This document shows positions 12,240-63,251 of a stretch of DNA of 64,000 nucleotides, one piece after another. Position numbers and translations under genes: made by a program. The stretch lies in contig CAWFJP010000012.1 of assembly GCA_963816145.1 (NCBI GenBank), positions 64,001 through 128,000 of the forward strand, in the 5' to 3' direction. The DNA comes from an uncultured delta proteobacterium. GTDB lineage: Bacteria > Desulfobacterota > Binatia > UBA9968. The notes below the pieces were generated by a model. The model saw only the letters and a list, made by a program, of their open reading frames with translations. It had not been told where the DNA came from and made no database searches. Position 1 is the stretch's first letter, and every line of letters starts with the position of its first letter.

Positions 12240-12247
12240 CCGCAAAG

Positions 12248-12440
12248 TGTTCATGTCTTTACGGTCGTCTGCAGAGTATGAAAATTCACGCCACCCCTCC
12301 ATGGGTTTGTTCATTGACCCGTCATGCCGGCGGAGGCCGGCATCCAGGGGAGGGGATGGATACCGGCTTTCGCCGGTATGACGGAACCCTCGTGGCAATT
12401 CGTTGCGCAGATCACACCCGCACATATATTTTCGAAAGAG
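12248..12440 (+). mobile_element. ~200-bp TIR-less mini-element, copy 1
   Basis: AG|tgttcatg...tcgtctgcagagtatgaaaat ... REP doublet ... tattttcgaaagAG; homologous to the copies at 23678, 45909 and 63043. Confidence 0.75.
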
Positions 12441-12524
12441 AACGCATAAGGGCGCAAGGAAGAATAAGCCATGTGGTACTTATCCGAGACGATTATGTGC
12501 CGGAGTAATTAGGGAGCGGTTCCA

Positions 12525-13091
12525 ATGCACAGCGATACGACTTATTCACTGGCAAGGTTTGTCGCCGATCTGCGGTCGATCACCGCGGCCACGGCGTATG
12601 AAACAGATGTCCTCCGCAAGGTTGCGCCGTTGGCCGAGCGCTTGGCCGCTAGTCCTGGCTTGAGGCGGGAACCGGCGATTCATTCAAACGTTGAAAAAGG
12701 CTTCAGCTTCAATCTGCTCCATGAAGAGCCGGATCACTCGCTCGCGGTCGTGATATTGAGCTGGTTGCCGAGCGGCGCGACGCTGCCGCACAATCATGGC
12801 ACCTGGGGGATTGTCGTCGGACTCGAAGGCGCCGAGAAGAACATCTTTTGGCGGCGTCTCGACGACGGCAGCCGCGCCGGCTATGCGGAACTCGAAAGGG
12901 TCGGTGAAATGGACTGCGTTCTTGGCCAGGCGGTGGTCTTGCCGAGTCCGACGATTCACAGCGTGGAGAACACGACGGCACAACCGAGCCTATCGCTACA
13001 CGTGTATGGCAAGAATGTTTACTACACCGGACGGTCGCAGTTCGATGTCGTCAACAAGCGCGAGCTTCCATGGGGCAAAAGTGCTTCGTGA
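12525..13091 (+). CDS. Cysteine dioxygenase-like cupin
   Basis: WLPSGATLPHNHGTWG, IHSVEN and SLSLHVYG motifs. Confidence 0.85.
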   Translation: MHSDTTYSLARFVADLRSITAATAYETDVLRKVAPLAERLAASPGLRREPAIHSNVEKGFSFNLLHEEPDHSLAVVILSWLPSGATLPHNHGTWGIVVGLEGAEKNIFWRRLDDGSRAGYAELERVGEMDCVLGQAVVLPSPTIHSVENTTAQPSLSLHVYGKNVYYTGRSQFDVVNKRELPWGKSAS

Positions 13092-13110
13092 ATGATGGAG
13101 GTAGTCAAAC

Positions 13111-14118
13111 ATGATGACCGTACTGACCGTGGCTATGATGTTTTTCCTAAGTCTGAGCGCGCCCAGCCTCGCTGCCGACGCCGATGGGCAACAGCGGTTG
13201 CTCATCGAATCGGCGCGCAAAGAAGCTAAAATGATTTTTTACACATCGGTGGAGACCGAGTTTGCCCGCTCGCTGACCAGCGCGTTCGAGTCCAAATACC
13301 CCTTTATCAAGACCGACATTTTTCGCTCGACCCATGACAAAATCCTTAGCCGCATGAACATCGAGCGGCAGACCAGCACTTACGTCGCCGATGTGGTCAG
13401 CGTCGGTGAATTCGAGACCTATCACATGCAAAAAAAAGGCTTTCTTCAGCCCTACAAGTCACCCAATGCCGCGGTCTATCCCGAGGGGTTCAAAGACCCC
13501 AACGGTTACTGGACCGATCTCTACGACAACCTGATCGTCACGGCCTACAACACGAATCGAGTCAAACGCGACGAGTTGCCGAAACGCTGGGAGGACTTGC
13601 TCCATCCGCGCTGGAAGGGACGCATGGTGCTCGACCAGAACGAAGATCGCTGGTTTGCCAACATGATCCATTTCATGGGTGAGAAGAGAGGCATAGAGTT
13701 CATGCAGGCATTAGCGAAGCAAGAGGTCGCCATCCGCAGCGGCCGATCACTGATTACTCAATTGTTGAGCGCGGGTGAATTCGACTTGCAGATCGTTGCT
13801 TACTGGTACCGGCCTTACCTGATGAAAAAACAGGGCGCGCCAGTGGATTGGCTGGGATTGGAGCCGGCGATCGTCGCGCTGCATCCGATCAGCATCGTTG
13901 AGAGAGCGCCGCATTCCAGCGCCGCGCGTTTGTTCATTGATTTCGCTCTATCGGATGAAGGCCAGAGGGTTTTTCTCAAGCGCGGCCGCGAACCGGCCAT
14001 GCCTGGGCTTAGACCGGAAGGTTATCCGAGTCAGCTAAAAATGTTTCCCAGCCGGGTCCAGCTGGCCGAAAAACTCGACGACTACAGCCGGCAGTATCGC
14101 GCTCTGTTCGTGCGCTGA
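13111..14118 (+). CDS. Extracellular solute-binding protein (Fe3+/thiamine-like cluster)
   Basis: ARKEAK..YTS, YNTNRV...PKRWEDLLHPRWKG and APHSSAARLFIDF motifs. Confidence 0.85.
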   Translation: MMTVLTVAMMFFLSLSAPSLAADADGQQRLLIESARKEAKMIFYTSVETEFARSLTSAFESKYPFIKTDIFRSTHDKILSRMNIERQTSTYVADVVSVGEFETYHMQKKGFLQPYKSPNAAVYPEGFKDPNGYWTDLYDNLIVTAYNTNRVKRDELPKRWEDLLHPRWKGRMVLDQNEDRWFANMIHFMGEKRGIEFMQALAKQEVAIRSGRSLITQLLSAGEFDLQIVAYWYRPYLMKKQGAPVDWLGLEPAIVALHPISIVERAPHSSAARLFIDFALSDEGQRVFLKRGREPAMPGLRPEGYPSQLKMFPSRVQLAEKLDDYSRQYRALFVR

Positions 14119-14146
14119 AAGCAGGTTAAAGTCGCTTTCGGGGGTG

Positions 14147-14344
14147 GTTGAAATCCCTCGCCTTCACGCGAAGAGAGGATTTGTCATGCCGGCGAAGGCC
14201 GGCATCCATCTTCGGTTTCGTTGGCAGGCCAAAGAAAACCTGGATTCCGGCCTACGCCGGAATGACCAAACGAAGAGTCGACTTCTAGTCGACGAATTGA
14301 GAACTCCTCGGCTTGGAGCCGAGGGTCGTTTAGTGCGATTCAAC
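14147..14344. repeat. REP-doublet-containing MITE-like element
   Basis: gtcatgccggcgaaggccggcatcc ... ggattccggcctacgccggaatgac (14183-14266) inside imperfect ends gttgaaatc/gattcaac. Confidence 0.65.
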
Positions 14345-14786
14345 TCAGCGGCGCGCCGCTCTTCGAGTGGCGCTCGGTCAATTCCAAGAGATAACCATCG
14401 GGATCCTGGATGAAGGCGACGTGATCCTGACTGCCGGGACGATTGGGCTGCGGTCCGAGGGTGAATTTCACGCCTTCGGCTTTGAGTTTTTCGCTCAACT
14501 TGTAGAGATCGGAAACATACAGGGCAATGTGACCGTACCATTTGGGCATCGCCGGCACATGGCCGGGGCCGCCGGTTTCGATCAGTTCCAACCCTGGATA
14601 TTCGTCCTCTGTGCCGTAACCCAGGTAGCCAACCCGCTCGTTCTTGTCGGGGGAGGGGCGCAGGCGTTGCACGTCCATGCCCAGCAAGCGCGTGTAAAAA
14701 TCAATGCTGCGATCGAGATTGCTGACCAGCATCATCGTATGACGAATGCGAAAGGTGATGTCGCCGACGGTTTTTTCTCCTGCCAT
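14340..14786 (-). CDS. VOC family / lactoylglutathione lyase-like protein
   Basis: HTMMLVSNLDRSIDFYTRLLGM, YGHIAL and FIQDPDGYLLEL motifs. Confidence 0.88.
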   Translation of the reverse strand: MAGEKTVGDITFRIRHTMMLVSNLDRSIDFYTRLLGMDVQRLRPSPDKNERVGYLGYGTEDEYPGLELIETGGPGHVPAMPKWYGHIALYVSDLYKLSEKLKAEGVKFTLGPQPNRPGSQDHVAFIQDPDGYLLELTERHSKSGAPLS

Positions 14787-14931
14787 AGGTTTCTCCCGGA
14801 GCTTGGTAAATCTAAGTCCGCGCATCCATGCGCTTTGGCGGCGACAGTAGCCCAGGAGCGCGCGCGGAATCAAGCGCGGCCGAGCAGCCGCGTCGCTGGT
14901 AGGAAGGGAATCTTTTCGCGCCCCGGAAAAT

Positions 14932-15078
14932 TTAGTGATGCGCTCGGCGCTGACGCCCGGCCCAAAAAATTAATCCACCGAGAATCGCCATGGTGGGCAG
15001 CCAATTTCTCAGCGCCCACTCGGTGATCGGCCTGAGCTCGAAATAAATACGTCCAGCGAATTCCCCGATAATGTCCAT
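14932..15078 (-). CDS. 48-aa small membrane protein (below the ORF-track cutoff)
   Basis: GGAGGTGG RBS, then MDIIGEFAGRIYFELRPITEWALRNWLPTMAILGGLIFWAGRQRRAHH*. Confidence 0.6.
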   Translation of the reverse strand: MDIIGEFAGRIYFELRPITEWALRNWLPTMAILGGLIFWAGRQRRAHH

Positions 15079-15382
15079 TAGACCACCTCCGGGTAAAGCA
15101 ATTCGTGTACGTGCTTAGGCAGTGGCGGAAGCATAGGCCCGAACGGCATGGTTGTGCAAGAGTGAACGCGCCACGGCGAGCCCGTGGGAATTACCCGTTA
15201 GCCATAGGGCTTGCCAAAACCTGCCATGGGCTGAAGTTCATGACAGAAAAACTCTGCGGATTTGCAGCAGCCGGGGCAGTTGGCTGAGGAATGGCTAAAT
15301 AATCCCCCGTAGCGATTGTCATGGTAGTACAGAGGCCTCTGACCTGACGGCGGCTTCGGCGAATTGGTAGGTTCTGGTCTGC

Positions 15383-16238
15383 TTACGACAGTGCTTTCGT
15401 GAAAGCCCGCCGCAGGAATACGCCGATCAAGTGGCGCTTGTAGTCGGCACCGCCTTCGATGTCGTCGACCGGATCGGCGGCCTGAGCTAACGCTTCGGCG
15501 GCGTTGCCGAGTTGCTTTTCCACTTGCGCCCGCGCGCCGGTGAGTAACCCATTCGCCTTGTCGGACTGAGTCGGCGCTACACTGACGCTGCCGACCACGG
15601 CGGAAGCTTTTTTAATGTTGTCGCCGTCAAGATCGAGGAGTAGCGCCAATCCCAAAGTGGGCCGTTCCTTGAGTTGGAATTTTAGATACGCGGCACGCTG
15701 GGTCTTGGTTAACACCGGTATCTCGACACCGATCAGCAGTTCGTCGCTCGCCAGAGAGGTCTCATAGGCGCCAGTGATCAGTTTATCCATCGCCACGGTT
15801 CGCGCACCGGCTTTGCCCTGGACATGGACCTTGGCGCCAAGGGCGGTCAGCAGCGTCGGCCGGATCGGAGTGGGGCTCGGCAAAGCAGAGATTGCCGCCG
15901 AGCGTGCCGCAGGCGCGCACGCGAATGTTGGCCACCTTGGTTTCCATCTCGGCCAACACCGGTAAGCTTTGCTTGACCAGCGCCGAGCGCTCGATGGCGC
16001 GGTGGGTGGCGCTGCCGCCGATCATCAGGGCACCGTTTTTCAACTCGATTTTGTTCAAGTCGGGGATGGTTTTGACGTCAACCAAGTGCTCGTAGCGCAG
16101 GAGATCATGCTTCATGGCCAGCAGCAGCTCGGTGCCGCCGGCATAGAGCCGTCCCTTCTCGCCGTACTGAGCGAGCATCTGGGAGGCTTCGCCAACGCTT
16201 TTGGGTTGATGAATCGAAAATTTTCTTAAGGGCATCAT
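15383..16238 (-). CDS. Xanthine dehydrogenase-family FAD-binding (medium) subunit; one +1 frameshift near 15860
   Basis: YAGGTELL and TLGGNLC..EPHSD motifs; continues in a second frame to ADYKRHL. Confidence 0.85.
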
Positions 16239-16316
16239 AAAACTGAAAAAGGCGGAAGGCGGAAGGCAAAAGGCGGAATGGTACTCCGGCCGATTTTATC
16301 CTTCATACTTCATCCC

Positions 16317-18596: not shown

Positions 18597-19072
18597 TTTG
18601 TGCTCTCCTTGGACATCATGCCGGCGGCGCGTTGAATAGCGGCGACGATCGGCACATAGCCGGTACAGCGGCAGATGTTGCCGTCCATGTGATGGATGAT
18701 TTCCTCGCGACTGGGGTTGGGATTCTCATCCAACAATGCCTTGGCCGCCATGATCATTCCCGGCGTGCAGTAGCCGCACTGAAACGCGAACTCGTCGATG
18801 AAAGCCTGCTGGATCGGATGGAGCGTGCCATCGGCTTTTTCCAAGCCTTCGACGGTCAGGAGGTTTTTGCCGCGCGCCTCGTAGGCGAGGTAGGTGCAGG
18901 CGCTCACCGGCAGGTTGTCGACCAGCACGGTGCAGGCGCCGCAGACTTGGACTTCGCAAGACACTTTGGTGCCATTCAAGTTGAGCTGGTTACGCAGCAC
19001 TTCAGCTAGCGTGTCCGCCGGCTCGCACTCCACCGACCAGGGTTTGCCGTTTAAGTTGAATTGCAGATTCAT
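18593..19072 (-). CDS. (2Fe-2S) small subunit of XDH-family enzyme
   Basis: CEVQVCGACTV, QCGYCTPG and GNICRCTGY motifs. Confidence 0.93.
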   Translation of the reverse strand: MNLQFNLNGKPWSVECEPADTLAEVLRNQLNLNGTKVSCEVQVCGACTVLVDNLPVSACTYLAYEARGKNLLTVEGLEKADGTLHPIQQAFIDEFAFQCGYCTPGMIMAAKALLDENPNPSREEIIHHMDGNICRCTGYVPIVAAIQRAAGMMSKESTK

Positions 19073-19162
19073 AGAAAACTACATTAGAGCAATGAAGCGA
19101 TGGAGTACTGGGTTTTTCCGAACCCAATACACCAGTGTTCCATTACTCCCGCGCTCCAATCT

Positions 19163-20191: not shown

Positions 20192-20194
20192 CTC

Positions 20195-21115: not shown

Positions 21116-21125
21116 AAAGTCTCCG

Positions 21126-21230: not shown

Positions 21231-21236
21231 CGAGCG

Positions 21237-22398: not shown

Positions 22399-23395
22399 TT
22401 AACCTTTGGCCAATGCCTTGATGAAACCGCTTTGCTCGATCTCGCGAATCAGATCGGTGCGGATGAAGCTGTCGTAGTCGGTGGTGCGCGCCTTGGGGTC
22501 TTTGATCTGGTCGAGGACGGTTTTGACTTCTTCCCCCGACGGTGTCGGCACCAGACGGAAATAGCGCTGGGTAAACAGCTCGTAGGTTTCGTCGAGTACG
22601 GCTGGCTCGTCCATCTTGGTATATTTTTTCAGCACACGGATGGTGAAGTCTTTGTTGCGCATCAAGCTATGGGTCGACTCGATGATCGCTTTGAGGAAAT
22701 TGATGACGATGGGGCGATGGGTTTTGATGTACGCTTCGGTGGCCATGTAGGAGAGGCCGGGATATTGAATCCCGAGATTGCCCAAATCCATCAATTCTTT
22801 GAAGCCCAAGTGCTTGGCTTTGGTCAGCGCCGGCGAGGACAAGCGCGCCACCATGGATGGCGCCGCTCTGCATGGCGGCCAAGATTTCCGGCAGGCCGCC
22901 CAATTGCAGGATGGTGACATCTTTTTCCGGCTCTAGATTAATCTTCTGCAAATATTTGCGCACGCCGAAATCGCTGAGCGCGCCGAAGCGGGTGACGCCG
23001 AGCTTTTTACCTTTCAACTCCAGCGGCGAGCGCAGGTCGGGATGGACCATCAAGCTTTGCGGCGTAGTATTGAGCAGCGTGGCGAACATGACGGTATCGG
23101 CGCCGCCAACCTTCGCCAAGATACTACCGGTGCCGGCGCCTTGTGTGATTTGAGTTTCGTTGGCGATGGTCGTCGACATGGCGCGCGGCCCGCCGCCGAT
23201 GTAGATCAATCCGACATCGAGGCCATGTTTATTGAAGATGCCAGCGTCCACGGCGACCCAGGTCGACAACGACGCCGCGCCGATGGAGGAATAGCTAACG
23301 CGAATGCGCGTGAGATCTTTGCTCTGGGCAGAGCCGAGGATAGTGTTAGACAGGAGGTAAAGCGCGACCGCGAAGAAACCTAAGGTTTGGCTCAT
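22399..23395 (-). CDS. ABC substrate-binding protein (NMT1-like); one +1 frameshift near 22843
   Basis: ORFs 22667..23395 and 22399..22920 join as AAMQSGAIHGGA-LSSPALT after removing one base. Confidence 0.8.
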
Positions 23396-23474
23396 GGCAA
23401 TTCCTCCACTGGGTTTCGTATATCACCCATGCCTGCCACCAAGCAAAGCCCATTTCATTACAGGATTTGGCACA

Positions 23475-23615
23475 TCTCACGCGAAGGCCAAGAACGCCAA
23501 ATCCGTAATTCTTGTCATTTCGACCAAAGGGAGAAATCTGTCGCTGGATCCGTCCGTTGCGTTCGCGATGACGGGCGTCGGTCTGCCACCTTTGCGCCTT
23601 CGTGCCTGCGCGAGA
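23475..23615. repeat. Nested repeats: a GCGAAG/GCAAAG-type palindrome enclosing a gtcatttcgac...gatgac REP doublet
   Basis: Outer arms tctcacgcgaaggcc / ccttcgtgcctgcgcgaga; inner gtcatttcgaccaaagggagaaatct...gcgatgac. Confidence 0.7.
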
Positions 23616-23677
23616 GACGATCCGTTTCCGAACGGTGCGCGCAGCACACCCAACGGAATCCCTCGTGTGTTTCGTGC

Positions 23678-23872
23678 CTCCATGGAAATTACATATGGCG
23701 GATATTCTGCGAAACGAAGAAATCTTCTTGGTCCGTCATACCGGCGAAAGCCGGTATCCATCCCCACCCTCCCCTGGATGCCGGCCTCCGCCGGCATGAC
23801 GACGCGATAAAAGGGCCCGTGGAGGGGGCGGCGGAATTTCATACTGTGCAGACGACCGTAAGCTCATGAACA
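23678..23872 (-). mobile_element. ~200-bp TIR-less mini-element, copy 2
   Basis: ttcgtgc[CT ... catgaaca]CTtcgtggtga; removing it restores the repeat arm. Confidence 0.78.
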
Positions 23873-31534: not shown

Positions 31535-31984
31535 ATGGCTGTTGAAATCACCCGGTTGGGAGCCGGCACCAAGTATCCGACCGCGGCGTTGCGCCAGATC
31601 GCCGAGATTCTCCTCCGCGCCCTCAAACAAAGCCGTGCCGAACTCAGCATCGCCCTGGTCGGCGACCGGGAAATGCGTCCACTCAACGCCAAGTACCGAA
31701 AGAAAAGGCAAACCACCGATGTGCTGTCGTTCTTCGTCGAGGACCAGCCGAGGTCGGGCGCAAAATTGCTCGGCGACGTGGTGATCTCCGTGGAACAGGC
31801 GCGCCGCCAGGCGGCGGAGGGCGGCATGACCCTCAAGAGCGAGATGGTGACTTTACTGATTCACGGCATCCTGCACTTGCTCGGCTACGACCATGAAAAA
31901 TCGCCGCGCCAAGCGCAGATCATGTTCGCTTACGAGCGGAAACTTCACGCCTACCTTTGTGACCGCGGGTTATTGAAGGTATAG
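31535..31984 (+). CDS. ybeY: rRNA maturation endoribonuclease YbeY
   Basis: TDVLSF, LGDVVIS and HGILHLLGYDH motifs. Confidence 0.95.
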   Translation: MAVEITRLGAGTKYPTAALRQIAEILLRALKQSRAELSIALVGDREMRPLNAKYRKKRQTTDVLSFFVEDQPRSGAKLLGDVVISVEQARRQAAEGGMTLKSEMVTLLIHGILHLLGYDHEKSPRQAQIMFAYERKLHAYLCDRGLLKV

Positions 31985-32031
31985 TAACCGGAGGTCGGAA
32001 GTCGCTAATCAGGAGTCGGAAGAAAGCTAAG

Positions 32032-45908: not shown

Positions 45909-46116
45909 CTCCGTTGAAAATACATGTGCAGGTATTATCCGGGCGACGAATTGGCACGAAGGTTCCGTCATACCGGCGAAAGCCGGTATCCAGGCTTTAC
46001 TCGGCCTCGCAGAATGAGCGAAGATGGATGCCGGCCTTCGCCGGCATGACGAATCGGGGGGGCGTGCAGGGGGGCTGCAATTTCATACTCTGTAGACGAG
46101 CGAAAGCTCATGGACA
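45909..46116 (-). mobile_element. ~200-bp TIR-less mini-element, copy 3
   Basis: cttcgtgc[CT ccgttgaaaata ... gctcatggaca]CTtcgtggtga; the empty site equals 5051-5069. Confidence 0.8.
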
Positions 46117-46136
46117 CTTCGTGGTGAGAAAAAACT

Positions 46137-47138
46137 ATGGCACAGCGCGAACTCGTTCTTGCCGGTGATATCGGCGGCACCAAGACCAGCTTGGCGCTGT
46201 TCTCGGTTAAGGGTGATAAGCTGCATGCCGAGTTGACGCGGACTTTTCCCAGTAAGCGGTATTCAGGATTGGGACCGGTACTGCAAGATTTTCTCGCCGG
46301 CGACGGCCCGAAACTTGACGCGGCTTGTTTCGGCATCGCCGGACCGGTGGTCGACGGCAAAGTCAAAACCCCAAATCTGCCTTGGATGGTCGATACGGCG
46401 GAGTTGCGCCGGGCGCTGAAGCTCGACGCGGCCTGGTTACTCAACGATCTCGAAGCCGGCGCCTACGGTATTTTTACCCTGGGCAACGACGAGTTTTGCA
46501 CGCTTAACGAAGGGACAATGCGCCAGTCGGGTAACAAGGCGTTGATCGCTGCCGGCACGGGATTGGGTCAGGCGATCTTGCACGACGACGGTCATCACTT
46601 TGATCCATTGGCGTCGGAAGGCGGCCATGGCGACTTTGCACCGCGCAACGAACTGGAAATCGACCTGCTGCGCTACCTGATGGGCCGCTTTCAACATGTC
46701 AGTTACGAGCGGGTAGTTTCCGGACCCGGTCTTTTCAATATTTATCGCTTCTTCAAAGAGCGCCGCGGTTTGGCAGAACCGCAATGGCTGACCGATCGCT
46801 TTGCCGCTGCCGACGATGATAGCGCGGTGATTTCGCAAGCCGCGTTGGCCGGCGAGGCGGAGATTTGCGTCAAGAGCTTGGATCTCTTTGTTTCCGTCTA
46901 TGGCGCCGAGGCGGGTAATCTGGCGCTGCGCGCCAAGTCGGTGCGCGGCCTTTACATCGGCGGCGGCATTGCGCCGAAGATTCTCGCCAAGCTCAGAGAC
47001 GGCACGTTCATGCGCGCCTTCGTCGATAAGGGGCGCTATACCGACCTGCTCGCCGCCATTCCGGTTCAAGTGGTTTTGAACGATCAAGCGGCGCTGCGCG
47101 GCGCCGCCTACTACGCCGCTTTCATCGCCCGTGACTGA
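46137..47138 (+). CDS. glk: Glucokinase
   Basis: GDIGGTKT, LLNDLEA, AGTGLG, SEGGH and ERVVSGPG motifs. Confidence 0.95.
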   Translation: MAQRELVLAGDIGGTKTSLALFSVKGDKLHAELTRTFPSKRYSGLGPVLQDFLAGDGPKLDAACFGIAGPVVDGKVKTPNLPWMVDTAELRRALKLDAAWLLNDLEAGAYGIFTLGNDEFCTLNEGTMRQSGNKALIAAGTGLGQAILHDDGHHFDPLASEGGHGDFAPRNELEIDLLRYLMGRFQHVSYERVVSGPGLFNIYRFFKERRGLAEPQWLTDRFAAADDDSAVISQAALAGEAEICVKSLDLFVSVYGAEAGNLALRAKSVRGLYIGGGIAPKILAKLRDGTFMRAFVDKGRYTDLLAAIPVQVVLNDQAALRGAAYYAAFIARD

Positions 47139-52054: not shown

Positions 52055-52075
52055 GTACATCTAATCACGTCGCTA

Positions 52076-55451: not shown

Positions 55452-55494
55452 CGCTCAATTATATTGGCCCAATATCGGCGTGAAGCTCGTGCAG

Positions 55495-55675: not shown

Positions 55676-55677
55676 CT

Positions 55678-55820
55678 CGCCCCGATCGGCTAACAGCGCG
55701 TGGTCCCGATGGTGGGTTGGATCCCGACGCCAGGTGCAGACCTATCTCCACCTACATCGCCAGCACCGCAGCGCCTGGGCGTCCCAGATCGAATTGCGTC
55801 CCTGGGTGGAGAAATTTTAG
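55678..55820 (+). pseudogene. Inverted, diverged copy of the 3' tail of SDR gene 62281..62982
   Basis: RPDRLTARGPDGGLDPDA..QTYLHLHRQHRSAWASQIELRPWVEKF* vs parent ...RPWSEKF*. Confidence 0.92.
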
Positions 55821-56051
55821 CGCACCGGCGGTTATTGTGAACCCGTCGCCGGCAGATTGCGTCTAATGGCATGTGTCAATGTCGAATCGGCGAGCCCCTC
55901 TCGGTTGGGGGCGGGACGTATTGTGGAGGCTGATCGACTGTTTTAGTATGCCAATTTGCATCGTCGTATTAAGGGGCTTTGAACTTCGGTGCGGATCAAT
56001 GCCAACGAGAAACGGTCAGTCATGGGCAAATCATCTGATAGAACCAGTCGA

Positions 56052-56939
56052 ATGAAGCTGCGCTCTCTGTTTGTCGTCTCGGCAATTGCTTTTGCCCTAC
56101 TTGCTGCCGGTTGTAATCTTATACTGGAACCGATCGAGCAGCGATTCCTGTTTCGGCCTTGGGGCGGGGACCCCATGAAGCTTGCATCGGTTGCTGCACG
56201 CGACAACGGCATCGAGGAAGTTCGGCTGCCGACGGCCGACGGCGTGACGCTGCATGGCTGGCTCAAGCGCCCCAAGGTGGCGCCGGCAGTTGGACGCTTT
56301 CCGCTCGTGATCGTATTCGGCGGCGCGCGCAGGGAAACTTCCTGGATAATGGATCTTGCCGACAAACCCGAGCATTGGGGCTGGCTATTTATCAATTACC
56401 GAGGCTTCGGACTATCGGAAGGCGAACCGTCCGAGCGTATTGTCCTGGCGGATACCCGTCTCATATACGATTACGCCGCGGCAAGGCCCGACGTAGATGC
56501 GACAAATATCGTGGTGCTTGGCCGGAGCCTGGGCACTTATTTCACGGTTGCCTTGGCCCGCAGCCGCGCCTTGCGCGGCGCGATCCTCGCCACGCCGTTC
56601 GATAGCATCGCCGCAGTCGGCGAAGAGCGCTATCCGTGGCTGCCGGTCGGGCTGATTCTTAATGGCCGCTATGACGCGGCCGCCCTCGCGCCGAAGATCA
56701 AAGTTCCCGCGCTGTTTGTCTTAGCCGAAAACGACGACGTGACTCCGGTGGAGAATGGCGCCGCACTCGCGCGCGCCTGGGGTGGACCGCAAAAAATTCT
56801 GACCTTGGCGGGCGCGCGCCACTACGGCATCGAGCGGCGGCCGGAATTCTGGAGCGCAGTGACGGATTTTCTCAGCGCCATCGAACCGGCCGCTTCGCGC
56901 CGCGACGATTACGCCGGACAACTCGGCGCGAAGCCGTAA
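56052..56939 (+). CDS. Alpha/beta hydrolase (putative lipoprotein)
   Basis: LAAGC lipobox; NYRGFGLSEGEPSE, GRSLG, D and H motifs. Confidence 0.87.
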   Translation: MKLRSLFVVSAIAFALLAAGCNLILEPIEQRFLFRPWGGDPMKLASVAARDNGIEEVRLPTADGVTLHGWLKRPKVAPAVGRFPLVIVFGGARRETSWIMDLADKPEHWGWLFINYRGFGLSEGEPSERIVLADTRLIYDYAAARPDVDATNIVVLGRSLGTYFTVALARSRALRGAILATPFDSIAAVGEERYPWLPVGLILNGRYDAAALAPKIKVPALFVLAENDDVTPVENGAALARAWGGPQKILTLAGARHYGIERRPEFWSAVTDFLSAIEPAASRRDDYAGQLGAKP

Positions 56940-57024
56940 ACTGCGACCCTTTCGTTCCATGCGTTGCAGCTTTTTTGTCCACGGCTAAATTTACCGAACA
57001 GACCGATAAGTAGTGTATAGTTGT

Positions 57025-57195
57025 TCAGGCGGCATAACGAACATGTTTTTCGAGAAACAGGTTTTTGATGAGCTGAGTCTGCATCTGGCGCCGGAACACA
57101 TGACGGCGCAGCGTGGCCATCATCTCAACCTTGCCGCGCGGACGGCTCTTGCCCAAGGCATGGTTGTTCACATCTTGTTTGATTAGTTCATCGGG
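57025..57195 (-). mobile_element. IS630-family transposase C-terminal remnant
   Basis: PDELIKQDVNNHALGKSRPRGKVEMMATLRRHVFRRQMQTQLIKNLFLEKHVRYAA* resembles IS630 C-termini. Confidence 0.75.
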
Positions 57196-57253
57196 GCGGA
57201 CGCGGGACTGCCAAAACCTGACATCTGGCGTTGCCGCGGAGTGAGATCGAGCG

Positions 57254-59191
57254 ATGCAAAGTGTTTCTCATGACGTAGTTGGCCTGCCGGCACAACAACA
57301 AGCTCTCCAGGCGCGATGCTTCCACCCGACGGAGACGTTTATCGAGTTTAGGAAAGAGGAGATTGACCAGTCCATCCCGGCGCGCTTCGAAGATCAGGTA
57401 CGCAAACATTCTCAACGGCTGGCCATCAAGACCAAGGAGATTGCACTCACCTATGATGCGCTGAACAGGGCGGCAAATCGCATAGCGCACGCTCTCCTGG
57501 CGAGACGTGGAGAGGGACAAGAGCAGGTGGCGATATTCTGTCACCAAGGCGCCGTGGCGATCACCGCGATGCTCGCCGTGCTGAAAGCGGGCAAAACCTA
57601 CGTGCCTCTGGATCCCATGGCGCCAAACCCGCGGAATCGGCAAATCCTCGGCGATGCTCAGATCGGACTTATCCTTGCCGACGCCGAAACTGTTTCACTC
57701 GCCGCCGATCTGGCGCAAAACGAGTTCGGCGTGATGAGTATCGCTAGTCTGGAGTCGAGTTTTTCCAGTGACAATCCCGGGCTCGGTATCTCACCCGATC
57801 GTCTTAGCTACATCATGTATACCTCCGGGTCCACAGGCGAACCCAAGGGGGTTATGCAGAATCATCGGAACGTACTCGACAAAACCAGGGGATGGGTCAA
57901 CGTTGTCCACATCTCGCCGGGAGATCGCTTGAGCCTATTGCGATCGCTTGATGTTAGCGGCTCGATCCGAGATCTATTTGGCGGCTTGCTCTGCGGTGCG
58001 ACAGTTCTTCCCTTCGACGTGAAGAGGGAGGGACAGATGCATTTAGCCGACTGGTTGGTGGATGAGGAGATCACAATCTACAATTCGGTGGTAACGCTAT
58101 TCCGTAACTTGGGCAGCACATTGACCGGTTCTGAGAGTTTTGCCAGCGTTCGCGTGATCAAATTAAGCGGTGAACCGGTGCGCAAGCGTGACGTCGAAAT
58201 CTATAAGAAATATTTTCCGTCGCACTGCCTGGCGATCAATATGTTGGCGTCAGCGGAGGTCGGCAGCACCCGAGTCTATTTCATCGACAAGGAAACCGCC
58301 ATTCCCGACACTCTAGTGCCGATAGGTTATCCGTTGGAAGGATGCGAAGTCCTTCTACTCGACAACGATGGCAATAAGCTCGGCTTCGACGAAGTAGGTG
58401 AAATCGCCGTGCGGAGCCGCTACCTATCGCCGGGATACTGGCGCAGGTCAGACCTTACTCAAGCCTGTTTTCTTGCCGACCCTGAAGGCGGTGATGCGCG
58501 CATCTTTCGCACGGGAGACCTCGGTTCCATGCGTCCGGATGGATGCCTAGTGCACCGGGGACGCAAAGACTTCCACGTAAAGATCAGAGGATATAGCGTC
58601 GAGATCGCCGAGGTTGAAGCGGCGTTGCTCGAACTTGACGCGGTGAAACAAGCCGTGGTCACGACTAGGGCAAACGCCCAGGGAAACCAAGTTTTGGTAG
58701 GTTATGTCGTCCTGACCGGGAAGACTACCCTCACCGTTAGCGCGATCAGGAAAGCTCTGGCCGCAAGGGTACCGGACTATATGATCCCTTCGGCCTTTAT
58801 TTTCTTGGACAGCCTTCCGCTCATCGGCCCCGGAAAAGTGAACGTCCGCGCCCTTCCGGACCCGGGCAAGACGCGCCCGGACCTCGAAGTGCCCTTTGCC
58901 CTGCCGCGCGACCCGGTCGAGGAAAAAATAGTCAAAATCTGGTCCGAGATTCTAGGCTTAAATGAGGTCGGAATTCACGACCGTTTCTTAGAACTGGGCG
59001 GAGATTCGTTGCTCGCCACAAGGGTAATTTCCCGAATCATTGTCACTTTCCGTTGCGATTTGCCGATGCGAACTTTTTTCGCGGAACCCACTGTCGCCGC
59101 TCTAGCCGCTGTGGTGGCGCGGAACGAAACGAAGCCGTCCACGTCGGAAAAAATCAAGCGCGCGCCGAGGTCGAAGCACATTTGGAAATAA
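57254..59191 (+). CDS. Stand-alone NRPS-like adenylation-thiolation didomain
   Basis: YTSGSTGEPKG, GEIAV, FRTGDLG, GRKD..VKIRG, GKVN and LGGDSLLA motifs. Confidence 0.92.
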   Translation: MQSVSHDVVGLPAQQQALQARCFHPTETFIEFRKEEIDQSIPARFEDQVRKHSQRLAIKTKEIALTYDALNRAANRIAHALLARRGEGQEQVAIFCHQGAVAITAMLAVLKAGKTYVPLDPMAPNPRNRQILGDAQIGLILADAETVSLAADLAQNEFGVMSIASLESSFSSDNPGLGISPDRLSYIMYTSGSTGEPKGVMQNHRNVLDKTRGWVNVVHISPGDRLSLLRSLDVSGSIRDLFGGLLCGATVLPFDVKREGQMHLADWLVDEEITIYNSVVTLFRNLGSTLTGSESFASVRVIKLSGEPVRKRDVEIYKKYFPSHCLAINMLASAEVGSTRVYFIDKETAIPDTLVPIGYPLEGCEVLLLDNDGNKLGFDEVGEIAVRSRYLSPGYWRRSDLTQACFLADPEGGDARIFRTGDLGSMRPDGCLVHRGRKDFHVKIRGYSVEIAEVEAALLELDAVKQAVVTTRANAQGNQVLVGYVVLTGKTTLTVSAIRKALAARVPDYMIPSAFIFLDSLPLIGPGKVNVRALPDPGKTRPDLEVPFALPRDPVEEKIVKIWSEILGLNEVGIHDRFLELGGDSLLATRVISRIIVTFRCDLPMRTFFAEPTVAALAAVVARNETKPSTSEKIKRAPRSKHIWK

Positions 59192-59321
59192 AAGCGCCAG
59201 TACTTTTGTCTAATGGGGAGAAATGGACATTTCAAACTTATGCGTCGTCCATGGGAATTGCAAAACCGAAACATGGAATGAGGGAACGATAAGGAAACTA
59301 GGCTCGCGCCGGCCCCCAAGT

Positions 59322-59396
59322 AAGTATCGACTTGGGCGATTATAATCGGAGATGCGGACGGAGTTTAAGAAGTCGGTGTTGCAAAACATGGAATAG
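59322..59396 (+). pseudogene. thyX 3' tail copy 2
   Basis: KYRLGRL*SEMRTEFKKSVLQNME*. Confidence 0.9.
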
Positions 59397-59445
59397 GCTA
59401 CTGGAAGACGTGGATTTCGCAGATCGGGTTCAGAGGTGTCAAAAA

Positions 59446-59764
59446 ATGAAGAAGACAAAACGAGAATTTCTCCGGGTAAATCGGGGGCACTGATAAGTAG
59501 CTTATCCGCTGGACAAAGTTATATGACGTATTCGATCGCCTGGGAACTGGCGTATCTGAAGTAATGAAGGATCACGGCGATTTATTAGATGAGGTTCTTC
59601 GAGAAGCGATCTTACAAGACAACATCGTCCAGCTTAATATGAGCCTGCCTCCAGCCATGAAGGCCGTGCTAGGCAAGCCTGTGCGCCAGCGCACGACGGA
59701 TGCGACGACCCTTGCTCGCATATGTCTCGCGGAACGATTGGAACGAGAAGTAAAAGCGGGTTGA
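59446..59764 (+). pseudogene. Decayed small antitoxin-like (RHH/CopG-type) gene
   Basis: Broken N-terminus (MKKTKR...), then LNMSLPPAMKAVL...TTDATTLARICLAERL. Confidence 0.4.
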
Positions 59765-59828
59765 TTTGACAAAATGTTAGCCGTTCCCCGATGCTGCCGC
59801 TCTAAAAAATCAATACTCAGGCCTGCCC

Positions 59829-59936
59829 CGGATTTTCTCAACGCCATCGAACCGGCCGCTTCGGGCCGCGACGATTACGCCGGGCAACTCGGCACGAAGC
59901 CTTAAACTGCGACCCTCTCGTTCCACGCGTTGCGGC
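59829..59936 (+). pseudogene. Copy of the 3' tail and downstream region of hydrolase gene 56052..56939
   Basis: DFLNAIEPAASGRDDYAGQLGTKP* followed by actgcgaccct; matches 56863-56970. Confidence 0.92.
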
Positions 59937-60062
59937 ATTTGGGCGAGAGCTTAGGGTCATGTCTACTTTGGAATTATTCCCAGGCTTGCTTTCGAACGCG
60001 CTTTACTAATTATTCCCTGGGTGCACTGATCCAGTCGCTATCCAGCTTGGGTTTATGGCCGG

Positions 60063-61055
60063 CTAGCGTTGTTTGAATAACTTGTCGATAAAACCTTCGC
60101 GCACCAGCCGGTCGAGGATCGAGTTGTCGGCGACGGTCTCGACGGCGATCGGCTTTTTGCCCATGAACTCGACGATCGGTGCGATCGCTTCGGGCTCAAC
60201 GCGCGGGACGCGCTCCAAGAACTTTACCGAATCGGTGTACAGTTCTTCGATCAAGCGCTGATCTTTGAGGCGGGTGTATTTCTCAATCACTTTGAACGCG
60301 CGATCTTTCTGGTTGTGCGTTGCGGCGACGCCTTCGAGGTAGGCGCGGGTAAAGGCTTCGGCCAGCTCGGGCGAGCGGCGCAGGTAGTCGCGCGTCAGGG
60401 CGATCACGATGTTGGAGTATTGAATGTCGAGCTCGTTCATGTCGACGAGCATGCGCATCGGCGCGTTGACGCGCAGCGCGGATATCACCGCGCCGGCAAT
60501 CTGTTTGAGTTGAAACGCTGCGGCGATTTCTGTGGTGCCGCCGAACTGGCGCACCGTGACCGCGCCGTCGAGTCCCTTTTTGCGCAACAGCATCCGCGTC
60601 ATGTTGTCGGTCACCGAGCCGAAGCGCGAAACGCCCAAGGTCTTGCCGCGCAATTGCTCGACGCGGGTGATTTCCGGCTGCGTCCATAAGCGATAATAGG
60701 GCCGATTCACCAGACTCATGATCGCAACCAGCGGCGCTCCGCCCAGCACGGCGGCGATCACCGAGTTGGTCGCGGCAAATCCGCCCTGCAAATCGCCGCC
60801 GATCAAGGCCTGCACGACGATCGGTCCGGAAGAAATAAAGATCAGATCGGCATCGATGCCGTATTTTTCGAAGGCGCCGGTCTCCTTGGCCATCCACAGG
60901 CCGGTGCCGGCAGGCCCGACGGTGGAATATCCGAGCGTGAATTTCTTGAGATCGGCTGCGGTCGCCCCGTTGCACAACCAGAAAATCATTGAAATAACCG
61001 TCAACGCTTTTGCAAACGGGCGGCAGATTGCGTTATGAGCGTGCGCAGGTTTCAT
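60063..61055 (-). CDS. ABC substrate-binding protein (NMT1-like)
   Basis: GAFEKYGIDADLIF and LRGKTLGVSRFGS motifs. Confidence 0.87.
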   Translation of the reverse strand: MKPAHAHNAICRPFAKALTVISMIFWLCNGATAADLKKFTLGYSTVGPAGTGLWMAKETGAFEKYGIDADLIFISSGPIVVQALIGGDLQGGFAATNSVIAAVLGGAPLVAIMSLVNRPYYRLWTQPEITRVEQLRGKTLGVSRFGSVTDNMTRMLLRKKGLDGAVTVRQFGGTTEIAAAFQLKQIAGAVISALRVNAPMRMLVDMNELDIQYSNIVIALTRDYLRRSPELAEAFTRAYLEGVAATHNQKDRAFKVIEKYTRLKDQRLIEELYTDSVKFLERVPRVEPEAIAPIVEFMGKKPIAVETVADNSILDRLVREGFIDKLFKQR

Positions 61056-61079
61056 CGGATGGCGCGGTCGGTTCGATGA

Positions 61080-62216
61080 TTACGATTTCTCGCCGAGAAT
61101 CTGCGTCAGCAGCTTCTCCAGCGGCCGCAGGTCTTTTGAATCCGGCGCGTCGCTGTCGAAATAGTTCAGATGGTCGGTGCGCTGCTCTTGCGCCGGGACA
61201 TGGTCTTTGGGGATATCGAGGCGGCGCGAGTTCTTTGAATCGCCGGGCTGGCTCATTTCTTTTTGAAAAGCGATTTGGCCTTCGCGCGAAAGATACCAAT
61301 TAATGAATACTTTGGCGGCGTTGGGATGAGGCGCGCGGTTCATGAGTGCCAGTTGTCCGAACGCGGACGAGATATTGATGCCCTCTTTGAAGTGGGTGAT
61401 GGAAAAATCGGAAATCGGCAGGCCCTGATTCTTGGCCTTGATCACCGCGGAATCCTGGCAGGGGACACAGACCGCGACCTTGCCGCTGGCAACCCAGTCG
61501 ACAGCTTGACGGATTTCACCGGCCATCACCACTTCCATCTCGCTAAAGAGTCGTTGGACAAACTTCACGCCGAGCTCTTTGTGGTAATAAAGATACTGCC
61601 AGGAGGCGCCGGCGCCGCGGACTCTGCGTGGGTCGACGGAGGTGATTTTGCCCTTCAGCTTGGGATTGAGAAGATCCCAGTAGGATCGGTACTCGGCGGG
61701 ATTCAATAGTTGGGTGTTATAGGCCGCGTTGCCGCCGCTCGAGACGTTGCCCTCGTAGACGAAGATGTAGCGGCTGTCCCGGTCGGTGTACTTGTGAGTT
61801 TTCTCCCACCACTTGGAGGTGTCGGTAACCTCGGGAAGAATCAGCGCCGGTTTGATCGGATCGAGAAACTTGGCGAGATAGAGCGCTTGGTATAGAGAAT
61901 TGCCGCCGCCGTTATAGACGTCAGCCAGATATTTTTCGCCGCGCCGTTCGGCGGCGATGCGCTGGCTCAAGTCGGTGCCTGAGCCGCCAATGGTGACCAC
62001 TTTGATCTTGGGAAAAGCTTTCTGAAAGGCGCCGGACTCGATGACTTTGCTGTAGCCGGAAAAGTACAGGGTAACTTGCCCCTCGGCTTCCGCCGCTTTG
62101 ACGGTTTTGTCCCATTCCGCGCGCCAGGCCTCTGCCGCCGGACTCATTTGAGGCGCAAAAAGGATCGCCAGCCAGGTAATTACCAAGATTAAAACTCTCG
62201 CCGTGTTGTGATTCAT
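61080..62216 (-). CDS. Extracellular solute-binding protein (Fe3+/thiamine-like cluster)
   Basis: WDKTVKAAEAEGQV, SYWDLLNPKLKGKI and APHPNAAKVFINW motifs. Confidence 0.87.
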   Translation of the reverse strand: MNHNTARVLILVITWLAILFAPQMSPAAEAWRAEWDKTVKAAEAEGQVTLYFSGYSKVIESGAFQKAFPKIKVVTIGGSGTDLSQRIAAERRGEKYLADVYNGGGNSLYQALYLAKFLDPIKPALILPEVTDTSKWWEKTHKYTDRDSRYIFVYEGNVSSGGNAAYNTQLLNPAEYRSYWDLLNPKLKGKITSVDPRRVRGAGASWQYLYYHKELGVKFVQRLFSEMEVVMAGEIRQAVDWVASGKVAVCVPCQDSAVIKAKNQGLPISDFSITHFKEGINISSAFGQLALMNRAPHPNAAKVFINWYLSREGQIAFQKEMSQPGDSKNSRRLDIPKDHVPAQEQRTDHLNYFDSDAPDSKDLRPLEKLLTQILGEKS

Positions 62217-62280
62217 CCGAATACAAACCCCTGAATGCTGACCTTTTCTACCTGACCGCGCCGTTCCGCCAATTGTTTTG

Positions 62281-62982
62281 CTAAAACTTTTCCGACCACG
62301 GTCGTAACTCAATCTGCGATGCCCATGCGCTGCGGTGCTGGCGGTGCAGGTGGAGATAGGTCTGCGCAATGGCGTCCGGGTCGAGACAACCGTCGGGGCC
62401 GCGTTCGGTGAGTCGTTCCGGGCGCTCCGGGTTGGTGATGCCGCCGTCGATCACCACTTGCGCGACGTGAATATTTCGCGGCTGCAGCTCGCGCGCCATG
62501 CTTTGCACCAGTCCGGTCAAACCCATTTTCCCCATGGCGAATGCCGGAGAGTTGGCGTAGCCTTTGACGCTCGCGGACGCGCCGGTGAATAGGATCGTGC
62601 CGCTGCCGGCTTTGATCATGCGCTTGGCCGCCTCCTGGCCGATCAGAAAGCCGCCATAACAGGTAATCAAGATCGTCTGGCGCACGTCTTCGGGGTCGAG
62701 ATCGGTGACCGGACCGCGGACACGGCCGCTGGCGTTGTAGACGACGAGATTGGGATCGCCGATATCTTGGCTCACCGACTGGAATAGCTTTTTCACGTCC
62801 GTCGGGCTGCTCGCATCGCAAGCGTAGGCGCGGCCGTCGATTTCTTTGACCAAGCCGTCCAGTTTCTTGACGTTGCGCGAGGCCATTGCCACCTTCATTC
62901 CTTCTTTCTTGAACAGCCTTGCCAACGAAGCGCTCAATCCCGGTCCGCTGCCGACAATCAATGCGATTTCTGGTTGTGCCAT
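62281..62982 (-). CDS. SDR family oxidoreductase
   Basis: GSGPGLS, YNAS, FTGASAS and QSMARELQP motifs. Confidence 0.9.
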   Translation of the reverse strand: MAQPEIALIVGSGPGLSASLARLFKKEGMKVAMASRNVKKLDGLVKEIDGRAYACDASSPTDVKKLFQSVSQDIGDPNLVVYNASGRVRGPVTDLDPEDVRQTILITCYGGFLIGQEAAKRMIKAGSGTILFTGASASVKGYANSPAFAMGKMGLTGLVQSMARELQPRNIHVAQVVIDGGITNPERPERLTERGPDGCLDPDAIAQTYLHLHRQHRSAWASQIELRPWSEKF

Positions 62983-63042
62983 GGCGATCCTCCAACGGCG
63001 GGATATTAAGATGAACTCGGGCTGTCAATCAAGACAACGAAG

Positions 63043-63251
63043 TGTCCATGAGCTGACAATCGTCTAAAGAATATGAGATTGGCGGGATTTCCCTCCATAT
63101 ACACCTCTCCCCGACTCGTCATTCCCGCGCAGGCGGGAATCCAGGTTTTTTCACCGCCGAGTTAGCCTGGATACCCGCTTTCGCGGGTATGACGGAGCTA
63201 GGCGGTTTCTTCGATCGGTAAATTTTCTTCGCATGCCTATTTTCGAAGGAG
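63043..63251 (+). mobile_element. ~200-bp TIR-less mini-element, copy 4
   Basis: acgaAG|tgtccatgagc...tcgtctaaagaatatgaga ... gtcattcccgcg REP doublet ... tattttcgaaggAG. Confidence 0.72.

Follow-up and report, generated by a model that had tools for sequence, protein, structure and literature searches.

The window, by which we mean the whole 64,000-nucleotide stretch of DNA analysed, carries four copies of a repeat of about 200 bases. They lie at 12248..12440 (plus strand, 193 nt), 23678..23872 (minus, 195 nt), 45909..46116 (minus, 208 nt) and 63043..63251 (plus, 209 nt), with precisely the boundaries and strands given in a preliminary description of this DNA; the shared left end, shared right end and central REP doublet that it had noted are likewise all present. 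Copy 1 starts 8 nt after the stop codon of the open reading frame at 11622-12239, within a CGCAAAG-type heptad repeat, and its REP doublet occupies about 12321-12382. The left junction of this copy also occurs in contigs of the public runs X8 and X13. Copy 2 comes after ..ctcaccacgaAG, the outer heptad in a CACGAAG palindrome. Copy 3 adjoins the outer heptad cttcgtggtga (46117-46127), and an ATG lies 9 nt downstream of that heptad, at 46137. The left flank of copy 4, acaacgaAG, is target-like and its right flank has no heptad repeat.

Each copy consists of two end modules and a variable centre occupied by the REP doublet. The left-end module of about 42 nt (TGTYCATGAGCTTACGCTCGTCTACAGAGTATGAAATTG..) is found at 12248..12289 (plus), 23831-23872 (minus), 46075-46116 (minus) and 63043-63084 (plus), and the right-end module of some 13-14 nt (TATTTTCnnnGGAG) at 12427..12440 (plus), 23678-23691 (minus), 45909-45922 (minus) and 63238-63251 (plus). 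Both are common to the corresponding ends of an IS110-family element. The mini-element has no recombinase ORF, and its two ends are not inverted repeats of each other. Since it has neither the terminal inverted repeats nor the DDE-made target-site duplication that define a MITE strictly, it is only ‘MITE-like’, a usage that PMC12288879 applies to MITEPpu9.

How large is the family? A profile built from the four window copies gave 415 matches in the window's genome, a 7.8-Mb soil Binatia-type genome, and 57 of these span the whole element. (The count includes C22:4066-4266, which is identical, flanks included, to C14:233207-233407.) The approximately 350 matches that do not span the element are mostly the central REP part alone. 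The two ends are paired rather than independent: a left end is followed by a same-strand right end at a spacing of 150-250 bp in 56/58 pairs. Two copies have the usual ends around another central palindrome, which makes the REP doublet replaceable cargo. With a median terminal branch of 0.065 and no identical pairs among independent copies, these are not young copies.

The insertion point is equally constant. The element sits, in a single orientation, just after the outermost CACGAAG heptad of a palindromic repeat of about 80-95 bp, with AG at both junctions (at the end of the left flank in 55/57 copies, at the end of the element in 49/57). An unoccupied target survives in the window at 4989..5069: the palindrome there is intact, and its arms hold three CACGAAG heptads each (tcaccacgaag-ga-cacgaag-cg-cacgaag ... 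cttcgtg-c-cttcgtggtga); the arm at 5051-5069 reads cttcgtgccttcgtggtga, exactly as first described. The sequence CACCACGAAG is abundant, with 404 occurrences against about 15 expected. In the left flank, positions -10 to -1 are conserved among the 57 copies. Conservation on the right is weak, with G at +1 in 33/57.

If the repeat is a mobile element, are there relatives in which its sites are empty? Empty alleles, with exact boundaries, were found for copies 1 and 3. At the orthologous place of copy 1 the closest relatives (G040, G003, G004 and G035) have the uninterrupted repeat GCCGCAAAG-AACGCAAAG; the window reads CCGCAA[AG]-element-[AG]AACGCA at this point. The target of copy 1 had been likened to 45817, which it resembles without being identical. 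The site of copy 3 is an intact arm, ..GTGTC[CT]TCGTGGTGA, in G036, G037 and G008, and is occupied at the identical point in G003, G040, G004 and G035, there with a different central REP type. All relatives examined differ from the window in the intergenic region orthologous to that of copy 2. In G003 that region holds another copy, elsewhere and in the opposite orientation. G040, G004, G002, G038 and G009 offer no clean empty site for copy 4, whose target had been called less clear from the outset.

Suppose instead that the element is immobile, having entered a palindrome once, after which the whole unit was copied, through recombination among palindromes or by whatever process disseminates them. 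A heptad-like motif does lie to the right of 42/57 copies and to the left of nearly all, and the seven copies in CACAGAG-type targets form a single clade (1 change on the tree versus 6.8 in shuffles, with 0/500 as low). But the flanks and palindrome loops of those seven are unlike one another, and in general the linkers and loops, judged by eye, differ between copies that are 80-98% alike within the element. On their right side some 15 copies are not within a palindrome (in 15/57 the 14 nt next to the right junction are free of heptads). Together with the uninterrupted repeat at the place of copy 1 and a full insertion sequence at the same site in other genomes, this leaves simple copying of the palindrome very unlikely.

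That insertion sequence was found by scanning the IS110 genes of congeners with profiles of the mini-element ends. Two genes matched, with left ends at E 2e-11 and 1.7e-9 and a right tip about 1.53 kb off. They belong to an IS110-family element of about 1.54 kb, present in congeners and sister genera, that has the two ends of the mini-element and occupies the same position in the palindrome. Nine full copies in seven genomes measure 1537-1550 bp. The left junction reads ..CCACGAAG up to the insertion point and TG(A/T)(T)TCATGA..CTTACGCTCG.. beyond it; at the right junction ..AAATTTTCnAAGGAG is followed by n(n)CACGAAG... The nine pairs of junctions show no terminal inverted repeats, and duplication is limited to the 2-nt core. 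Three tandem arrangements were also seen.

The element encodes a DEDD recombinase of 421 aa that scores 113.1 bits against PF01548 (cut-off 29) and 66.6 bits against PF02371 (cut-off 21.3). Its similarity to the IS621 transposase 8wt6 is remote (E 4.5e-11, over two stretches). In that alignment GLDVH, MESTG, KTDMKDA and HESAG face GIDTA, IEATG, KTDTVDA and YESGS; motifs of the GLDVH/MESTG/KTDMKDA/HESAG type we take to be the catalytic motifs of IS110-family recombinases. The non-coding left end extends over 243 nt and the right end over 38 nt. This long left and short right end assign the element to the IS110 group and not to IS1111, by the layout that PMC11208160 sets out. The preliminary description had proposed that a conservative recombinase, IS110-like or other, moves a non-autonomous element that parasitises one repeat family and carries another, and had envisaged longer copies with the same ends around a recombinase ORF. 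Such copies exist, as do the empty alleles in relatives that it had also suggested looking for, and they support the proposal.

Is the partner present where the 57 copies are? In two genomes, G009 and G005, insertion sequence and mini-elements occur together, and the end variants of the mini-elements, TGTGTCATGAGC.. and ..TCATGATC.., match those of the resident insertion sequence. In the window's own genome, which has the most mini-element copies, a tblastn search for the partner recombinase returned one gene only, at 32% identity, and the left-end profile of the insertion sequence gave 32 matches, all limited to its first 40 or so positions. Nor does the interior of the mini-element resemble the insertion sequence any better than shuffles do: the tips are the only parts that match, and the mini-element has no bridge-like RNA of its own. 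The window copies are thus orphans, in a genome with neither partner recombinase nor bridge RNA. This absence bears on the activity of the family, not on its origin.

A Y1 (HUH) transposase or RAYT would offer another route, the repeat being then an IS200/IS605-type mini-element (PATE) or a REPIN. Single-stranded insertion 3' of a short target (..GAAG) would also give one orientation and neither inverted repeats nor duplication; the left flank is far more conserved than the right, the centre is a REP doublet of the kind linked to RAYTs, and the genome has seven Y1_Tnp matches above the family cut-off (one only with adjoining in-frame stretches added), one of them about 1.4 kb from a copy (C29). 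However, 0/7 of these genes are flanked by REP motifs, heptad motifs or element ends, the doublet is cargo, and it is an IS110-family element that has exactly these ends and this site. Identity as a PATE was rejected, as neither similar subterminal hairpins at the two mini-element ends nor a Y1 element with the same ends was found. REPINs and other RAYT-associated doublets share with this repeat an inverted REP doublet, here at the centre of the element; unlike theirs, the conserved parts that determine the site are the IS-derived tips. We regard movement by a Y1 enzyme as highly improbable.

IS110-group recombinases are directed by a bridge RNA, and the left end of the partner contains the segment expected of one. 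It follows the pattern AGCCCG-N8-TGTGATC-NN-GGACATCC, in which N8 equals the 8 nt to the left of the insertion, that is, the left target flank with the AG core. According to PMC11208160, the bottom strand is the pairing partner of the left target guide, which therefore equals the top-strand left target including the core; the 8-mer would accordingly be the predicted left target guide. Across 47 distinct loci in public genome and metagenome contigs it agrees with the target at a mean of 7.15 of 8 positions, and it varies along with the target. Guides CCACAGAG, CCGCAGAG, CCACAAAG and CCACGAAG each face their own target (7/7, 3/3, 1/1 and 5/5), and ACACGAAG guides face CCACGAAG targets in 25/29. 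At the variable positions 0/2000 shuffles reach the observed match, a figure that overstates independence because the loci are related to one another. The methods of PMC11208160 give a nine-base left and a four-base right guide, which fits the flank asymmetry of the 57 copies.

The remaining pairings are less complete. A candidate left donor guide, CGCGAAGGAG, is present in the left end and equals the right-end tip CGAAGGAG. In two loci its G/A variant tracks the right end, but in four others it does not. Neither of the two right-hand guides, for target or donor, could be located, and a search of the left end against Rfam matched zero families. RNAalifold predicts 48 pairs there, almost all kept and two changed on both sides, among sequences that are 89% alike.

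Might the repeat be retained for a function in the host, as a small RNA, a 5' leader or a cassette of promoter and ribosome-binding site, its mobility being secondary? The right end reads ..AAGGAGG, a start codon lies 20 nt downstream of copy 3, and in G002 a lone left end stands directly upstream of an ORF for an ABC-type substrate-binding protein. Moreover, the 42-nt left module is more conserved than a donor site should need. Yet the right end mostly leads into the rest of the palindrome, not into a start codon, and no sigma-70-like promoter was found across a natural RE-AG-LE junction, in L069. This last result also weighs against the bridge-RNA reading, in which the junction of a circular intermediate would be expected to carry a promoter. 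On balance a host function as the primary cause is improbable, if somewhat less so than the other two alternatives.

We conclude, with a probability of roughly 85%, that a bridge-RNA-using insertion sequence of the IS110 group gave rise to the 200-bp repeat, a MITE-like and non-autonomous derivative. Target type also follows lineage, as the single clade of seven copies in CACAGAG-type targets shows, and this too speaks for such an origin. Of the insertion sequence the repeat keeps solely the parts required of a donor: about 42 nt from the start of the left end and 13-14 nt from the finish of the right end, meeting at an AG core. The other 150 nt or so are unrelated filler, mostly the REP doublet. 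In a cell with the full insertion sequence, the DEDD recombinase and the left-end RNA would take the mini-element, or a circle excised from it, as donor. Strand exchange would occur at AG, and from this would follow the fixed site and orientation, the AG at both junctions, and the lack of inverted repeats and of any longer duplication. When the bridge RNA is supplied in trans a 22-bp donor is enough (PMC11208160), and the 42 nt retained on the left exceed the 11 or so expected of a donor. Since the insertion sequence is absent from the window's genome, its 57 copies are either leftovers of past activity or reliant on recombinase supplied from outside.

Non-autonomous IS110 derivatives have been published already, and the present family joins a known kind. 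MITEPpu9, the ssr9 module of the IS110-family ISPpu9 in Pseudomonas putida KT2440, likewise has IS110-like ends and AG at both junctions, inserts in repetitive extragenic palindromes, occurs both beside the insertion sequence and alone, and is proposed to use its transposase in trans (PMC12288879). It differs in carrying the sRNA gene ssr9, which pairs with an antisense RNA encoded by the insertion sequence, and, as that source describes it, has eight copies in a genome with the insertion sequence; five of these copies lie immediately downstream of tnp. The present family has 57 copies, no partner in the genome and a REP doublet as cargo, and shares with its insertion sequence only the 42 and 13 or so nt. 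Minicircles of MITEPpu9 have been shown by experiment (PMC12288879), whereas for the present family circles are predicted.

The partner itself resembles IS621 and the IS110 group, as described in PMC11208160, in its DEDD recombinase with a Transposase_20 domain, its long left and short right ends, the lack of terminal inverted repeats, the 2-nt core at both junctions, its palindromic-repeat targets, and a left-end segment that equals the left target plus core and co-varies with it. In contrast to the CT core of IS621, that of the partner is AG on the transposase strand, and the RNA of the partner is a sequence-based prediction. ISPpu10, an IS110 element that requires a stem-loop in its target, likewise hits many copies of one conserved intergenic stem-loop sequence, and its study lists a method for trans-mobilization of split-donor substrates (bioRxiv 10.64898/2026.03.19.712850). 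A survey of IS110 elements reports reintegrated partial fragments with empty donor and target loci, and tandem non-coding units beside the transposase that recall the tandem arrangements here (bioRxiv 10.64898/2026.08.14.744561); the cases it presents are mostly in genomes that hold the insertion sequence and concern cargo expansion. The present family is a high-copy orphan.

A wider reading, which we offer tentatively and think possible but doubtful, is that the mini-elements are a fossil record of natural reprogramming of a bridge RNA, each retargeting having left its own burst of donor-only copies. The heptads of the host palindromes would have diversified (CACGAAG, CACAGAG, CGCAGAG, CACAAAG) and the insertion sequence would have followed with matching guides; the clade of seven copies in CACAGAG targets would then represent one of these bursts. 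On this reading the subclades of the mini-element could serve to order and date the switches of guide, element and host repeat family would be co-evolving, and the 42-nt left module would be the least that excision naturally requires in cis, more than the donor of some 22 bp that suffices for insertion.

The family is a large, clean natural example and does not reveal a new mechanism. IS110 bridge recombinases are being turned into tools for programmable DNA insertion, a purpose for which it helps to have natural data on what they require. In its 57 copies and their relatives the family provides a natural map of donor needs, 42 nt on the left and about 13 nt on the right, and a natural series of guide variants, each with its own target. 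It accounts for a class of unannotated 200-bp intergenic repeats that break gene-adjacent palindromes in soil Binatia genomes, and it is a case of donor-only parasites that outlive their recombinase in a genome.

The four copies in the window, at 12248-12440 (+), 23678-23872 (-), 45909-46116 (-) and 63043-63251 (+), lie where the preliminary description placed them and align over their full length with a mean column identity of 75%. A profile built from them matched the host genome (7.82 Mb, 31 contigs, 56% G+C) 415 times and covered the whole element in 57 cases; the remaining matches are mostly to the central REP doublet alone. Two of the 57, C22:4066-4266 and C14:233207-233407, are identical over the element and 50 nt of flank on either side. 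The 10.5-kb contig C22 may duplicate part of contig C14, through assembly redundancy or a recent segmental duplication.

Do the two ends of the element belong together? Profiles of the left-end module (about 42 nt) and of the right-end module (about 14 nt) were built separately and then paired across the genome. The ends are coupled: in 56 of 58 pairs the right end lies on the same strand, 150-250 bp downstream of the left. Of the two outlying pairs, one is a copy carrying an additional insert (312 bp) and the other a chance pair on a left match of E = 4. The ends pair only at about 200 bp, and this pairing revealed no long copy enclosing an ORF anywhere in the genome.

The centre is less constant. 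Two copies on contig C26 (8400-8840, minus strand; 31580-32000, plus strand) have the usual ends and target but a different central palindrome, of the CCCTCTCCC..GGGCGAGGG type, which suggests that the centre is exchangeable cargo, or else a landing site for other repeats. At C24:34635 and C1:94826 a different right part (..GAAGAGTCGACTTCYAGKCGACGARTTCA..) follows the left end and first REP, and no usual right end is present at either place; these may be chimeras with another repeat family. Since the centres on C26 and the right parts on C24 and C1 differ, we regard the tips as the conserved, defining parts of the element and the REP doublet as cargo. A solitary 45-nt left end was also seen in the related genome G002 (contig C203, locus L022, 3318-3385), directly 5' of the start codon of an ORF of 340 aa. 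Such a lone end may be what is left of a truncated copy and now serve as the upstream region of that ORF, whose product, to go by its first residues, may be an ABC-type substrate-binding protein.

The mini-element is flanked by another repeat, a palindrome some 80-95 bp long whose arms each hold three 7-nt units (heptads), laid out as TCACCACGAAG-n-CACGAAG-nn-CACGAAG-(G)TTCGGA..loop..TCCGAA-CTTCGTG-nn-CTTCGTG-n-CTTCGTGGTGA. An intact, unoccupied example lies at 4989-5069 of the window. Sister families carry the heptads CACAGAG and CGCAAAG, and the palindromes recur at hundreds of sites across the genome. About 15 occurrences of CACCACGAAG would be expected and 404 are present; 342 arms fit the pattern of an unoccupied CACGAAG arm. 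The mini-element always sits after the outermost heptad, which adjoins its left end. The 2-nt core AG closes the left flank in 55 of the 57 copies and the element itself in 49. In 34 copies the left flank closes with the seven bases CACGAAG, in eight with CACAGAG or CGCAGAG; a heptad-like motif stands within 14 nt to the right of the element in 42/57. Conservation in the left flank spans -10 to -1; on the right it is weak, with G at +1 in 33/57.

Two stretches of the window of about 19-20 kb were searched across the genus (31 genomes), and the orthologous intergenic regions were aligned. At the site of copy 1, where the window reads CCGCAA[AG]-element-[AG]AACGCA, four congeners (G040, G003, G004 and G035) have the uninterrupted sequence ..GCCGCAAAG-AACGCAAAG... 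At the site of copy 3, the intact arm ..CTTCGTGTC[CT]TCGTGGTGAG..ATG is present in G036, G037 and G008; the window's genome and G003, G040, G004 and G035 are filled exactly there. The REP hairpins at this point are of the GCCGGC type in the window's genome and of the TCCCGC type in the other four, a mismatch that would reflect either a hot site hit by more than one insertion or a centre replaced through conversion. The region of copy 2 is different in every relative, and in G003 it holds a copy elsewhere, in the opposite orientation; for copy 4 the orthologous regions of the congeners offered no clean empty site. Comparison of empty and filled sites bears out the boundaries proposed in the preliminary description, the element plus one AG. 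Because the empty sites in congeners are precise, we take the mini-element to be, or to have been, mobile.

Fourteen public DNA runs contain at least half of the words in the copy-1 region; RNA runs contain at most 0.10 of them. Contigs from four DNA runs, mapped to this region, break at repeats. Of the features examined, the contigs confirm the left junction of copy 1, in two further runs (X8 and X13), and nothing else. A contig joint in runs X1 and X3 that skips 12215-12556 was rejected as evidence of an empty allele: its sides, between which any sequence may lie, are short (29 nt). At 14157-14607, 18667-19117 and 23177-23627 of the window the contig depth, summed over four of the public runs, increases 10- to 50-fold; since it does the same at the mini-element copies, other multi-copy repeats lie in these intervals.

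What enzyme might move such an element? The window's genome holds one IS110-family gene and seven matches to Y1 transposases. Mobilisation by an IS200/IS605 or RAYT enzyme was rejected, the seven Y1 genes having no flanks that match the element's ends or the repeats. To find a partner we catalogued the congeners' IS110-family genes (31 genomes) and ran the end profiles over 12 loci, of which 11 came from congeners and one, the C13 gene, from the window's genome. Two of the 12, in G009 and G005, proved to be longer copies with the same ends and a recombinase, of the IS110 kind that the preliminary description had named as one possibility. The left end matches with E values of 2e-11 (G009) and 1.7e-9 (G005), about 300 nt upstream of the DEDD domain; the right tip follows about 1.53 kb from the left end, and heptads lie on both sides. 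G005 is an unpublished genome, and no conclusion rests on it alone.

In G009 the left junction of this insertion sequence (IS) passes from ..ttcaccacgaAG to TGTGTCATGAGCTTACGCTCGTCC.., and the IS consists of a 243-nt non-coding left end, a 421-aa ORF and 38 nt ending in ..AAATTTTCGAAGGAG, beyond which stands GACACGAAGAGCACGAAG. The 421-aa protein has both IS110 Pfam domains and matched the IS621 transposase. Among 123 genomes of the order, relatives 76-83% identical were found in G032 and G005, both of the genus, besides G009's own gene; the same search gave relatives in G072, G074, G075, G079 and G081, from four other genera. Nine full IS copies from 7 genomes measure 1537-1550 bp and have the same junctions; that of G081 lies within a CACAGAG-type palindrome. 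Copies were also seen on MAG contigs labelled Verrucomicrobiia, Candidatus Acidiferrales and Actinomycetes (loci L091, L095 and L097), the target in each being CCACGAAG-like or CCACAGAG. These could be due to mis-binning, loose labels or inter-phylum transfer.

A tblastn search of the window's genome found no gene of this partner IS. Its single match was the resident IS110-family gene (C13:11514-11954, within C13:10645-12050, or 631 to about 2000 of locus L001 on the minus strand), which starts about 70 nt past the stop of a TPR-protein gene. With a protein 32% identical to the real partner, and flanks without similarity to the element's ends, this gene was rejected as the partner; so short a left end may mark it as a remnant or as a member of the IS1111 group. 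Nor was there any trace of the partner's left end past its first 40 nt or so, none of 32 matches extending further.

How is the mini-element related to the IS? The tips alone match, and the interior scores no better than shuffles. An internal homology with the IS left end, apparent by eye, was rejected because it did not outscore shuffles in six copies. The mini-elements of G009 and G005 have the same end variants as the IS of their own genome. A 22-bp donor is enough when the RNA is supplied in trans (PMC11208160); the left-end module here is about 30 nt longer than the roughly 11 nt expected to suffice for a donor. Three tandem arrangements that share the AG core were found: in G075 (contig C779, about 520-570 of locus L069) a mini-element follows an IS, in L105 the IS stands after another right end, and in L125 a left end comes after the IS.

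In a tree of the 56 distinct copies of the window's genome, the seven in AGAG-type targets form one clade (SH-aLRT 83). Target type changes once on this tree against 6.8 times on shuffling, and none of 500 shuffles was as low. The outer flanks and palindrome loops of the seven are unrelated. Since they nonetheless form one clade, we infer separate insertions by one donor lineage, which is what a period of activity of an IS carrying a CACAGAG guide would produce.

According to PMC11208160 the RNA of IS110-group elements lies in a long left end, and the analysis in its methods takes a target guide of nine bases on the left and four on the right for IS621-like RNAs. The left ends of our IS share the frame AGCCCG-[8 nt]-TGTGATC-nn-GGACATCC. 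Where the IS follows CCACGAAG the 8-mer is ACACGAAG or CCACGAAG; in G081 it is ACACAGAG, and the IS is located after CCACAGAG. Scanning public genome and metagenome contigs with this frame, the 8-mer left free, gave 16 and 47 loci. Removal of four chance matches inside ordinary genes (3/16 and 1/47) and of eight further loci without a readable left junction (four at a contig end, four outside the left-end pattern) left 51 loci, 47 of them distinct. Over the distinct loci guide and flank agree at a mean of 7.15 of 8 positions. The guides CCACAGAG, CCGCAGAG, CCACAAAG and CCACGAAG stand beside the matching target in 7/7, 3/3, 1/1 and 5/5 cases, and ACACGAAG beside CCACGAAG in 25/29. Guide and flank match at 2.91 of the three variable positions, against 2.05 after shuffling. 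None of 2000 shuffles reached the observed value; as the loci are kin, this fraction should not be read as a probability.

The asymmetry of the mini-element's flanks, strong on the left and weak on the right, fits a long left and a short right guide. A left-end segment, CGCGAAGGAG, equals the right-end tip sequence, which makes it a candidate for the left donor guide. The segment's sole variant tracks the right end in two loci, but not in four. Neither a right target guide nor a right donor guide was found. RNAalifold predicts for 41 left ends two stems and a hairpin, 48 pairs that are almost never broken; changes on both sides occur in only two pairs, the sequences being 89% alike. Three IS loci gave no relevant Rfam family, and a natural junction of right end, AG and left end gave no promoter-like sites.

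MITEPpu9, the ssr9 module of the IS110-family ISPpu9, has IS-like ends, AG at both junctions and a place in REP sequences, forms minicircles and is entered in ISfinder as a MITE-like element (PMC12288879). A 2026 preprint describes partial fragments of IS110 elements that have reintegrated, and non-coding units in tandem next to IS110 genes (10.64898/2026.08.14.744561); another shows that a target stem-loop contributes to ISPpu10 specificity and lists split-donor trans-mobilisation (10.64898/2026.03.19.712850). Literature searches under other names found nothing more, and supplements may list similar families. With MITEPpu9 and the preprint cases published, non-autonomous IS110-derived elements are already a known kind. 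What is new is that such an element occurs in this host group, in 57 copies, as an orphan and with a REP doublet as cargo, together with the natural series of guide variants.
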